A DNA stretch of 64,000 nt, from positions 7,688,001-7,752,000 of the forward strand of contig OZ024742.1 of the NCBI GenBank assembly GCA_964016885.1, written 5' to 3'. A program made the position numbers and the translations under genes. Position 1 is the first letter of the stretch. Each line of letters starts with the position of its first letter. Of the stretch, positions 6,580-44,766 are shown in pieces. This stretch comes from Eledone cirrhosa (lineage: Eukaryota). The notes under the pieces are model-generated. The model saw only the letters and a program-made list of their open reading frames with translations. It had not been told where the DNA came from and ran no database searches.

Positions 6580-6617
6580 TTTCTACCGGTTGCGCATTTC
6601 TAAATGCTTTTCAAAAA
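6580..6617 (-). ncRNA. Degenerate hammerhead with U3-A8 core
   Basis: Minus strand: ttt TTGAAAA gcattt-ag-aaatgc GCAA CCGG TA gaaa. Palindromic ACCGGT; GAAA mutated to GCAA. Confidence 0.5.
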
Positions 6618-6654
6618 TAATTTTGAGATAGAGTGTCCGTGCTGTTTGCTCTGA

Positions 6655-7096
6655 TCAGACGACTGAAGTCAAGGAGAAGCTTCCTCAGCCATGTCCAGCC
6701 CCTAACAACATCTCAGGAAGAAACCAGACTACAGCCATGGACTAGAAAGCTAGAGAAGGAATACCCTCCTATTGACATGGGAATCCCCCTCTTCTGAAAC
6801 CCTCCTACCTGGCTCAGAAGCACCATGGGTCCAGTGGAAGACACTCAACTGCCTGAGAACAGGAATGGGGAGATCAAAAGCTGCTATGGCCAGAAAGAGC
6901 TACAAGACCGGCCCAACCATCTGCAAATGCGGAGAGGTGGACCATACGATGCAGCACTACCTTGTTTGCCCTCTACTACCCAACCAGTGCAGCTTAAAAG
7001 ACCTCACAGAATTTAATAATAATGCAAAGGACTGTGTAAAGAAATGGGAAACTGTCATATAACCACTTGCTTCGAAGATACGAAAAGAAGAAGAAT
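6655..7096 (+). mobile_element. RTE-X-like non-LTR retrotransposon 3' fragment
   Basis: RRLKSRRSF..(frameshift)..LPGSEAPWVQWKTLNCLRTGMGRSK..CKCGEVDHTMQHYLVCP..W*, then a short 3' UTR with an (AAG)n tail. Confidence 0.8.
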
Positions 7097-7142
7097 GAGG
7101 TTATATTAATATAAATAGAAAAATATCTATGAAAATAATTAT

Positions 7143-7308
7143 TTGTTTTACTTTTGGCACACGGCCAGCAATTATCCCATTGAATACTTTATTTTATCGA
7201 CCCCGTAAGGATGAAAGGCAAAGTTAACCTCGGCGGGATTTGAACTCAGAATGGCAAGGGCCGTAACTCTTTGCCATTCTGAATTCAAATCCGAGGTTAA
7301 CTTTGCCA
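7143..7308 (-). mobile_element. tRNA-derived SINE, 5'-truncated, with a short 5' fold-back (7271-7308)
   Basis: Reverse complement of gagttcaaatcccgccgaggttaactttgcctttcatccttacggggtcgataaaataaagta..gtgccaaaagta. Confidence 0.85.
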
Positions 7309-7567
7309 TATCTATGAGAATAATTATTGCGTCGAAAATGTAATTGTTAAAGATTTTTGCTTAGAAGTCATTTCTTTGAATATTAAGAAACGCCCTATGA
7401 CAAAATATATTTCTATTTTTGCCGAGTGTACAATTAACACATGGTCTCTAGTTTCCCATGTGACAATTCGATGGGAAGAAAGCTTCCCTTATATATTGTA
7501 AAAATGATATTTTTTTCCTTTCTTTGTTAATATTTTCCAGTTATTAAACGAAGCAGAATAATGTTCA

Positions 7568-39864: not shown

Positions 39865-40110
39865 GTAAGTATGTTTTGAAACAGTGAGCGAGTTTGAAAT
39901 TAGAAAATATATAGCTTTCACCGTATTTTTAACTAAAGGAATTTTAACTTGATAACGGGGTTTAGAACCCTCAGATAAATGGAAAAAGATGAGTATTGAC
40001 GTACATGACGTCAATACTCATCTTTTTCCATTTATCTGAGGGTTCTAAATCCCGTTATCAAGCTAAAATTCCTTTAGTTAAAAATACGGTGAAAGCTATA
40101 TATTTTCTAA
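39865..40110. mobile_element. ~100-bp-arm fold-back insertion in (TA)n
   Basis: 39900-40000 is the reverse complement of 40006-40110. Confidence 0.8.
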
Positions 40111-43100
40111 TATATATATATATAAATATATATATATATATATATATATATATATATATATATATATATATATATATATTATAATAATAAAATAACAGGA
40201 GGCTGTAAATCCTTGAAAGGTTTATTATACTATGATCATTTTAATGACCGGGTTCCGTATGAATCCGGTGATATCATCAGGTATTCGAAATATAATAAAG
40301 GAATATAACAGACAAAATCCATGGGGTTGACAAAAACATAAACAAAGAGGATGACCTACCATCTAGCATCTTCTACCTTAGTCGGTCGCCCTCAAATGTT
40401 GGCTATTCGGTCTACTTATGACCATCTGGTGAGGGGGCGAAAGCTTATAATGTACTAATACTTTCCCGTCAAAGAGAAGAAAGAAGAAAGAAGAAAGAAG
40501 AAAGAAGAAAGAATAAAGAAGAAAGAAAGAAAGAAAGAAAGAAAGAAAGAAAGAAAGAAGAAAAGTCAACGTTAAGGTCATGCTACAATCAGGCTAGAAA
40601 TTGTCGTGAAAAATGTTTTTCCAAAGAACCTATATCCTAACAGAGGCATATAGTGGTTGTATGTATGGTATAATGTGTGAACAGAAAATTGGAACGTTAA
40701 ACTTACGTTTAGAGATATGGGATGAAATTAAAGAATTAAAAAATTAAAAAAAGTTTAAGGTTTGGGTTGTGAGATTTAGTTAAAGAATTTACAGAGAGAG
40801 TCTTATGTGAAAAAGTTTAAGTGTATTATAGAGATTCTCGATAAGTTTTCAGGGTGGGTTATAAAGTATAGATTAAGCCCTTGTTTTGCAGTCAATAACA
40901 CGCGACGACTGCAGACTCTGGCCAGCCCTTCCTAACCAAAGTGTCAGCCGTTCCGAGTGATATCGTCTAGCGAAATAGATGGAAATTAATTTTTCCGAGT
41001 ACTCTAGGAATGTGACTGTCTTAGGCTTCGGGTGTGCTACCGGGAAGTCTGCCATCGCCGTTAGGCCATTGCTATACCAAACGAATACTATTAATTCACA
41101 CAGCAGGGGGATTTGTTTACGTGCTAGAAGAGGGAGGAATGATACAGCTAATAGTTATGATTAAGCCTAGAATTTAAAGGTACTATATGGCGGTCAAAAC
41201 CGGCGGCGCGGCGGGCCCCGGGGCTAAGCAATCCGCTCCGAGTAATTTCATTTACCGAAAGAAGGGGAAATTTATGTTTCCAAGCACTCAAGGAAGGCTT
41301 ATGCACCAGAGCGCCAGGCGCGCAGCCGGGAAAGCCGCCACATCAGTCGGATCATCGCGTGTAACCAAACGATTATTATTATATATTCACACCCGTGATG
41401 TGAGGTTGAAAGTGGTAAAACCAGGTGAAAAGCGCAAATAGACTATATTTAAGTCCCCAGTTAGTCCGGGTTATAAGTAGTGTGGTTCTTTGGTGGGTGG
41501 GGAGAGATATAAGGGTACATAGAGTAATATTCTAGTGTCGTGTGCTAATGAGTACAATGATAAATAAGTACATAGTGAGAGTAAAGCGAGTGAAAACCTA
41601 AATAAAAGGAACAATAAGCAAAAATATATAAAAATAAGAATACATTAATAAAAATACAATAATAAAGTAAAAATACATAAATAAAACGCCGTCATAGCTA
41701 GGGTGGTGATGGAGTATATCGGAGAAATCAAAACACATGGGAAATACAATATACATCAAGTTGTAGTTAGATATATATAGATATAGAGGATGGAAGAGAT
41801 GGAATGGTATCAGCTGATACCTAGTGCATGTTCGAGTCTCAGAATTCAGTGTGAGTCACACATGCCCTAAAGTATAGGGTAGAGAAATCAGTCAATACAA
41901 TATATATATATATATATTATATATATATAGTAGAATAATCGAGTATCGAAAAATCGGCGCACGAGTTCACGATAAACAAAATTCGATATGAGCGGCAGAG
42001 GGCTCAATATATATGTGTGTGTGTGTGTGTGTGTATATCTATGTGTATATATATGTGTATATATATGTGTGTATATCTGTATATGTGTTTGTATATGTTT
42101 GTACATGTGTATATCTATATGTGTGTGTGTGTGTATGTGAATGTGTCTGTTGACACCTGTAATATAGCTGAAGAGTAACATGACAATAAGGACAGGCACC
42201 CAATATTTGAACTGGTTTATAGAATTCTCTCTGCCTTTGACACTCTAAGTAGAGCTTTAAAGAATTACCTTTTAAAGAATTTCCCTTTTCTTTAAACCGA
42301 TCAACCATGACTGACTCCCAACCATCTTATAGACACCTGAAATAGAGGCATTGTTGGCTTAAGAGAAACTTAAAAATAAGGAGTGGCACCCCAATTTGAA
42401 CTTGTTTATAGAATTCTTTCTGCTTTTGTCACTCTAAATATAAATTATAGCTTTAAAGAAGTAGCTTTTAATGAATTCCCTTTTCTTTCAACCAATGACC
42501 TCCACCAATCCCACTCCCCACCCTCTCCTAACACCAGAAAATATATAAATACCACCATATTTCCTGATGATTTCTCAAGAATGAAACAGTCCTGTAGAAT
42601 CTCATCATATTAAAATTATTCTACTCTGCTATGTATTGAGTATCTTACTTACATTGGTTACCTCCGATTCAACCCGGAATAACTTACCTAGCGTGAAATT
42701 AATAAACATTCGTTGTACTGCCTCTCCGTTTTGTTCCTGTTCAAATTTTTCCATTATATATATATATATATATATATATATATAGCGGCCGGTTCACGTG
42801 TGGGTCACTTTAACGGCCATAACTCACATGCGCTGGTAGTTGGCATTATATTTGCGGACCGTGGGACGTAAGTCCTATAGGATGGAAATAGCTATCTGAT
42901 GAAATTTACTTTCCGTTGGAAATTCTCTGAATTTCCAATCTTTTGTAGATGGAAACCGCCGGTAATAGCATTATGAACAGGGAGATATTTAAATCATTTT
43001 TTAATTTATTTAAAGAATTGTTTAATGTTTGTTTGTTCTGCTCATCAATTTATATATATATATATATATATATATATATATATATATATATATATATATA

Positions 43101-43219
43101 TATATATATATATATATATATATATATATGTATATATATATAAACATATATATATATATATATATATATATATATATATATATATATATATATATATATA
43201 TATATATATATATATATAT

Positions 43220-44306
43220 ATAAGTATGTATACGTACATACATATATGTATATGTACATACATATATGTATACAGACGTACAGAAGTATGTATATATATA
43301 TATATATATATATATATATATATACATACATGCACACATATATATATATGTACGTATGGATTCACCGAACATTTATTATAATGCTCGGTGTGTTTGTAAA
43401 CAAAAATCCCGAATTAAGCCGTACAGTGTCTAGCAACCATCGTTGCTCATTTGTTCAACACTGACAAAGGAACGCTGTACTAGTTTCAAGCTTATTAGCT
43501 ATCGTCAGCAACGTATACCTTCCTGCCAGATGATTGAACGTCTGAAAGTATATACTTTCCTTATGCATATTAACGGCTGAGCAGCCTAATTTGCATATCG
43601 AGTGAGTTAATCGGCCGGGGTACCGAAAACGATAAACGGATAAAATGAAACGAAATTTCATTTCTCATTCTTAGTACGGCTGTTACTTAAATATAAGTAT
43701 GTACGGCTTCATTCGGGATGTTTGTTTACAAACACACCGAGCATTATAATAAATGTTCGGTGAATCCATACGTACATATATATATGTGTGCATGTATGTA
43801 TATATATATATATATATATATACATACTACTGTACGTCTGTATACATATATGTATGTATGTATACATACTTATATTTAAGTAACAGCCGTACTAAGAGTG
43901 AGAAATGAAATTTCGTTTCATTTTTTCCGTTTATCGTTTTCGGTACCCCGGCCGATTAACTCACACGATATGCAAATTAGGCTGCTCAGCCGTTAATATG
44001 CACAAGGAAAGTAAATACTATCAGACGTTCAACCATCTGGCAGGAAGGTATACGTTGCTGACGATAGCTAATAAGCTTGAAACTAGTACAGCGTTCCTTT
44101 GTCAGTGTTGAACAAATGAGCAACGATGGTTGCTAGACACTGTACGGCTTAATTCGGGATGTTTGTTTACAAACACACCGAGCATTATAATAAATGTTCG
44201 GTGAATCCATACGTACATATATATATATGTGTGCATGTATGTATATATATATATACATACTAGTGTACGTCTGTATACATATATGTATGTACGTATACAT
44301 ACTTAT
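43220..44306. mobile_element. Non-autonomous ~440-bp hammerhead repeat (retrozyme-like): ~1.1 units minus joined to ~1.4 units plus
   Basis: tgtacggctt.attcgggatg at 43700 and 44141. HHRs at 43472-43514 (minus) and 44052-44094 (plus): acgttg CTGACGA t agct-aata-agct t GAAA CTAG TA cagcgt. No recognisable ORF; (TA)n on both sides. Confidence 0.85.
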
Positions 44307-44728
44307 ATATATATATATATATATATATATATATATATATATATATATAGAAGGATGTGTTCATGCGCAGAGATGCTATAAGATAACTTATAAATAAATA
44401 TATATATATTGATATGACATATATACTACATACATATATATATTTATATACATATATATATATATACATGTACATATGTATATATATATACATATATATA
44501 TATATATATATATATATACATCTATATATATACATCTATATATATACTCTCTTATTTGAAGAACTATTGTAACGCGAACTGGCGCGAAAGTTATTATAAT
44601 TATTGACAAACCAATCAAATTACTTCTCGAAAAACCTGGAATTTCGAGCCACTTTTTCCATATAAAACAAGTAACATTCAGAGACCAACCAGATGTGAGA
44701 AAAACCACAGACCCTCCATCTCAACTCA

Positions 44729-44766
44729 CCTTTTGAAAAGCAGAAGAACTGCGAAACCGGTAAAGG
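44729..44766 (+). ncRNA. Minimal hammerhead with U3-A8 core, all helices paired
   Basis: cctt TTGAAAA GCAG-aagaa-CTGC GAAA CCGG TA aagg. Confidence 0.8.

Follow-up and report, generated by a model that had tools for sequence, protein, structure and literature searches.

Why do several hammerhead ribozyme motifs in a 64,000-nucleotide (nt) stretch of the Eledone cirrhosa genome (contig OZ024742.1, positions 7,688,001 to 7,752,000; hereafter the window) carry U3 and A8 in their catalytic core in place of the canonical C3 and G8? Based on the sequence, we propose, with a probability of about 0.85, that these are five type I minimal U3-A8 hammerheads from two high-copy lineages, likely terminal repeats of Penelope-like elements, which would cut as double hammerheads. 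We name the motifs by the position of U3, so that 44733, 13342, 6614, 16213 and 14254 correspond to the motifs placed at 44729, 13339, 6580, 16127 and 14170 in an original prediction made from the letters of the window.

We scanned the window with a type I hammerhead descriptor that required a self-complementary helix III and a strict GAAA and left positions 3 and 8 free. This identified 12 matches (seven C3-G8, four U3-A8 and one A3-U8), all of which have a Watson-Crick pair at 3-8, with no mismatched pair among them. The four U3-A8 matches (+13342, +44733, -14254 and -16213) have intact cores and compare with a mean of 0.06 per shuffled window in 200 dinucleotide shuffles (no match in 188, one in 12); the same background was 0.01 for C3-G8 and about 0.45 for all classes other than C-G and U-A pooled. 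The fifth motif, 6614, was found only when one change in GAAA was permitted. This setting, run without a shuffle control, gave six extra matches, namely 6614 and five weak ones with a 2-nt helix III (three mismatched or G3-T8, one C3-A8, and one U3-A8 at 11715), which were dropped. The A3-U8 match, at 18566, was likewise set aside as a mis-register, with helices I and II of a decayed canonical hammerhead closing just upstream. All five predicted motifs were thus located with U3 and A8 present together (U3 at +44733, +13342, -16213, -14254 and -6614). The type I core (U4 G5 A6 N7, A9, G12 A13 A14, A15.1-U16.1, H17) is complete in four of the five and fails at A13 in 6614. Every motif has an NUH site, a self-complementary helix III and a G10.1-C11.1 pair closing helix II, and has no unpaired base separating A9 from 10.1. 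Three helices surround the core in an arrangement open at helix I, in full in 44733, 16213 and 14254 and with mismatches in 13342 and 6614.

The best-preserved member of the first lineage, lineage A, is intact (44729..44766, +) and has 4 base pairs (bp) in each of helices I and II, GAAA, the core UUGAAAA with U3 at 44733 and A8 at 44738, a GUA site with H17 at 44762, and a 6-nt self-complementary helix III. It sits in a stub between (TA)n tracts (44545..44843, +), composed of a body of about 185 nt, the hammerhead and a 3' tail, in which no coding match was found. The second copy (13339..13374, +; U3 13342, A8 13347, H17 13371) has one mismatch in helix II, and a helix I of 3 bp followed by a mismatch. 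The anatomy quoted for both in the original prediction, cctt..gcag..ctgc, therefore describes 44733 and does not describe 13342, in which pair 4 of helix I is an A-G mismatch and pair 3 of helix II is A-C. This copy lies in a 5'-truncated lineage A insertion (13259..13442, strand not assigned) with 33-nt inverted tail copies at 13259-13291 and 13410-13442, as seen by self-BLAST. Its body is homologous to the 44733 copy over 13301-13385 (93% over 85 nt), and loose read ends at 13301 match the 44660-44690 body of the 44733 stub. The third, diverged copy (6581..6617, -; U3 6614, A8 6609) has a 6-bp helix II, GCAA by an A13C change, and a weak helix I with only three pairs, one of them U-G; it is probably decayed, in agreement with its earlier description as degenerate. 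The sequence 3' of this hammerhead recurs as two tail-to-tail copies in a perfect-looking palindrome at 2758-3032, which are 97-98% identical to 6420-6578 and do not include the hammerhead itself. A metagenome search with a lineage A pattern allowing either base at 3 and 8 gave a sole match (L001); it is C3-A8, falls where a bacterial gene begins, and was discarded as a chance occurrence.

Lineage B comprises two motifs with GUC sites, both on the minus strand and both with a 5-bp helix I and a 10-nt self-complementary helix III. The first (16127..16218) has the core UUGAGAA, with U3 at 16213, A8 at 16208 and C17 at 16132, and a long helix II and loop; the second (14170..14259) has the core UUGAUAA, with U3 at 14254, A8 at 14249 and C17 at 14175, and one bulged C in helix II. 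By alignment, their upstream flanks (16219..16400 and 14260..14420, both minus) are common to the two. Between 14254 and 16213, compensatory changes at helix I pairs 2 and 4 and at helix II pair 2 keep the pairing, and four central bases of helix III are altered with self-complementarity kept. Both copies also share a TAG/GTAT word (14148-14155 and 16106-16113, minus) that begins 21-22 nt past the cleavage site and resembles a 5' splice site, and introns can occur in Penelope terminal repeats. Between the two hammerheads, 14780-15910 holds a tandem duplication of a pyrimidine-rich unit of about 530 nt. A pattern search of viral contigs for lineage B gave no match.

How often did the paired change arise? 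The original prediction had spoken of four hammerhead families. We compared the flanks of 45 hammerhead pairs, with core and helix I left out and 1000 shuffles for each pair, and this analysis instead groups the U3-A8 motifs into two lineages, A (44733, 13342 and 6614) and B (16213 and 14254). The lineage A copies align across flank and motif with a mean column identity of 83%, and for lineage B the alignment of 14254 to 16213 extends for about 300 nt. The scores of all four within-lineage pairs were reached by none of 1000 shuffles, whereas that of each of the six A-versus-B pairs was reached by at least 32. Of the remaining pairs among the 45, just one, the C3-G8 pair 62190/42896, also scored above every shuffle. 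Judged by this flank kinship, the paired 3/8 change arose at most twice.

Is U3-A8 then a trait of these families, or have individual copies decayed to it? Four public runs were compared with 13290-14500 only, which covers the 13342 and 14254 motifs; runs X4 and X5 had small word shares, and 40 of the 287 rows of the read variant table are listed. Both hammerhead regions are among the deepest-covered parts of this segment, where depth is not a copy number, and are therefore taken to be high-copy repeats; the 14254 motif was high-copy in runs X1, X5 and X6. Changes private to the window copy do appear as near-100% rows (13505 and 14348). Among the rows listed, none falls at 14254, 14249, 13342 or 13347, and no majority C3 or G8 was found at the 14254 motif in public reads and contigs. 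For the X5 contig over this motif, the listed differences, 34 out of 41, all fall among 264 non-structural positions, with none at the 44 positions of helices and core (Fisher p 0.004; 7 of 46 when only loop II is counted, p 0.007); the test comprises this one contig. The read evidence is weak for lineage A, because none of the listed rows falls in 13290-13371, not even at 13359 where two lineage A copies differ, and the trait therefore rests on the three of three window copies. The data support U3-A8 as a structurally constrained trait of the families, as opposed to copy-by-copy decay: it is carried by all five copies, lineage B compensates in helices I, II and III, and the listed read variants show no majority reversion at the lineage B core. 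The earlier argument that the paired change speaks for selection holds in this sense of structural constraint; as a count of changes it does not. Under the opposite possibility, the families would be C3-G8 and the window copies would have decayed independently, by C-to-T and G-to-A changes, in an AT-rich genome. This gains something from both changes being transitions toward A+T, from the other decay changes borne by 6614 and 13342, and from a variant table listed in part, with 40 of 287 rows. We consider it extremely unlikely, given the presence of both changes in every copy of two lineages, the absence of mismatched 3-8 pairs from the strict-GAAA matches, and listed rows that include near-100% ones but none at 14254 or 14249.

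If the core is kept, how would it work? As a hairpin, helix III is unfavourable, at best +6.0 kcal/mol in lineage A and +1.5 kcal/mol in lineage B; between two molecules it reaches -8.3, -12.9 and -13.4 kcal/mol, so that the duplex is favoured. When two copies were cofolded, 44733 and 14254 each formed the double-hammerhead pairing, and 16213 formed the intermolecular helix I and III part of it. In the mechanism that we propose, pairing of the self-complementary helix III would join two RNA copies into a double hammerhead, which would cut after GUA in lineage A or GUC in lineage B, with U3-A8 likely keeping the tertiary Watson-Crick pair between positions 3 and 8. Cleavage of hammerheads as dimers has been reviewed (PMC6765202). 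Having arisen at most twice, U3-A8 would then have been copied by retrotransposition. The ribozymes of the source elements are likely under selection for catalysis, cutting slowly or with protein help, and the window copies would be truncated stubs without coding sequence, probably inert, with 6614 and 13342 decaying. Read ends piled at 13332-13335 were not taken as evidence of cleavage, as they come from a DNA library.

What carries these hammerheads? None of the five motifs directly adjoins coding sequence for a reverse transcriptase (RT) or a GIY-YIG domain, and a Penelope-like carrier, which we consider likely, is therefore inferred from anatomy. Traits of Penelope-like insertions found here are the high copy number, the 33-nt inverted tails at 13342 and the (TA)n flanks at 44545-44843. 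Truncated pieces between inverted tails or in (TA)n tracts are arrangements described for Penelope-like elements (PMC8557442). Furthermore, the window is rich in GIY-YIG Penelope-type remnants, as mapped by tblastn, in inverted-repeat insertions and in (TA)n flanks. Pfam detected GIY-YIG in two of 13 frames scanned, one of them above the curated cut-off. The nearest GIY-YIG remnant (16943-17254) is parted from 16213 by a (TA)n microsatellite and another repeat, and among the 14 matches of an unlinked remnant the only named relative is an Octopus bimaculoides protein (58% identity). The RT/GIY-YIG remnants of Penelope type belong to at least two kinds and lie at 3683-5218 (-), 34664-36100 (+), 36839-37666 (+), 39080-39604 (+), 51421-52273 (+), 53241-53597 (+) and 55899-57101, and one of them forms a large inverted duplication (54838-58101). 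The idea that the element's gene stops at U4-G5-A6, read as a stop codon, was dropped, as no frame matched Penelope-type proteins.

Other readings of the same motifs differ in the carrier or in what is kept. The hammerheads could belong to a repeat other than a Penelope-like element, such as a retrozyme-like or a non-autonomous element resembling short interspersed nuclear elements, as the lack of joined coding sequence would allow. We judge this very improbable: no tandem hammerhead-bearing units were seen among these five, Penelope-like repeats likewise have a short helix I, a palindromic helix III and inverted tails, and a 2026 preprint derives animal retrozymes from such repeats (bioRxiv 10.64898/2026.07.22.740005). 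Alternatively, the U3-A8 fold might be kept as a structure, for example a protein binding site or a dimerisation signal, with cleavage weak or not selected. The hammerhead of PAc, a Poseidon element of Anolis carolinensis, lends some weight to this idea: it did not cut without protein, no RNA-seq ends were found at its cut site, and insertion in vitro was unaffected by catalytic mutants (PMC11167929). Minimal hammerheads also cut poorly in vitro. Set against this, four of the five copies retain every catalytic-core position together with the NUH site and the 3-8 pair, beyond what a binding site would obviously need, and in PAc a single mutation at 3 or 8 abolished cleavage, which returned in part when both were combined (PMC11167929). 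A purely structural role therefore appears improbable to us. A further conjecture, to which we give little credence, is that U3-A8 was fixed twice, in unrelated, very high-copy Penelope-like lineages, as a tuned-down switch: the weaker U-A pair, together with the long helix III palindrome of lineage B, would make cleavage strictly dependent on both dimerisation and the element's own protein, which would favour amplification over C3-G8 families.

Several points nevertheless weigh against the double-hammerhead reading that we prefer, among them the missing joined coding sequence, the single contig with its shortened list of differences behind the Fisher test, and the absence of 13290-13371, with 13359, from the 40 variant rows listed. 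The descriptor was drawn up after the motifs had been seen, and agrees with the published consensus for minimal hammerheads. Cofolding of 13342 and 6614 did not return a hammerhead. Either lineage may include a minority of C3-G8 copies and thus be a mixed family, and metazoan minimal hammerheads have shown low activity in vitro (PMC4209133).

How new is such a core? The original prediction, which called U3-A8 an uncommon functional variant, made too much of its novelty: a U3-A8 descriptor had already been applied to Penelope-like elements in 2014. That study, by Cervera and De la Pena, reports U3-A8 covariation in minimal hammerheads found via the Cercyon element of Schistosoma mansoni, and about 1,300 matches to the descriptor (PMC4209133). 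Its supplementary alignment includes S. mansoni cores UUGAAAA and UUGAUAA, a C3-G8 look-alike from S. japonicum and molluscan C3-G8 examples. The Cercyon motifs are alike in being type I, with a helix I of 4-5 bp, a self-complementary helix III and a U3-A8 core, and in occurring mostly as single truncated copies beside C3-G8 families; UUGAAAA is the lineage A heptamer and UUGAUAA that of 14254 (PMC4209133). The motifs described here differ in their host, in that no full-length carrier was seen in the window, and in the longer, 10-nt helix III palindrome and helix II loop of at least 46 nt in lineage B. Both lineages also differ from many minimal hammerheads in missing the unpaired base between A9 and G10.1, although such variants are described too (PMC4209133). 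Earlier still, Perreault et al. reported in 2011 several natural U3-A8 cores and cited earlier work on in vitro activity of such swaps (PMC3088659); these hammerheads share the compensatory 3-8 covariation, but do not appear to be the dimer-type minimal motif of retroelements. PAc is likewise a Penelope-like hammerhead, with its 3-8 pair tested by single and double mutants, but it has a C3-G8 core joined to intact coding sequence, is protein-assisted and is dispensable for insertion in vitro (PMC11167929). The motifs are new examples of the variant published in 2011 and 2014, and no published description of these particular families was found in the literature searched, outside which most subscription papers lie. 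Little is new, since a search descriptor, the variant core itself and the connection with Penelope-like elements were all in print by 2014. U3-A8 and C3-G8 minimal families side by side at high copy in one genome are test material, in which cleavage rate, dependence on protein and success in amplification could be compared directly, with a bearing on the role of hammerheads in Penelope-like elements.

Could such motifs have been found by standard searches? A strict CUGANGA pattern does miss them, as had been predicted, but the miss is not special to U3-A8. Rfam reported no hammerhead at E<=10 over 14254, 44733, 13342 or 16213, nor over the canonical C3-G8 copy 44058, and because this copy is also unmatched we conclude that the Rfam models do not see minimal motifs. 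The whole-window Rfam scan gave no hammerhead among 150 of 328 rows listed. Lineage A at 13291-13376 (+) resembles the Rfam model of the MALAT1 conserved region (34.7 bits, cut-off 70; E 0.93 for the whole window). This is probably a chance resemblance; the intact 44733 copy reached only 17.8 bits, and part of the 13291-13376 match spans an insertion junction.

U3-A8 is the minority core in the window. The C3-G8 hammerheads number 11 copies in four lineages (seven from the first scan and four from a second) and lie within 21792-62303, with C3 at -21822, -24917, +25189, +33776, +42896, -43508, +44058, +49530, +54502, +60031 and +62190. Several are arranged in inverted-repeat pairs (43350-44216 and 24765-25341), the helix II loop is about 90 nt long in copies 54502 and 62190, and helix III of the 25189 family is nearly palindromic, with an odd number of nucleotides. 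The decayed canonical hammerhead at 18540-18620 (+) has a CUGAUGA box one base short and a 10-nt helix III palindrome, and sits within an inverted repeat (18034-18797). Finally, the window includes a 410-residue open frame (20182-21414, -) that has no Pfam match and that we take by eye to be transposase-like, a broken retrotransposon of the type without long terminal repeats (46174-48152, -; Pfam RVT_1 and zf-RVT), and an array of about 80 units of a 38-nt satellite (29420-33500).

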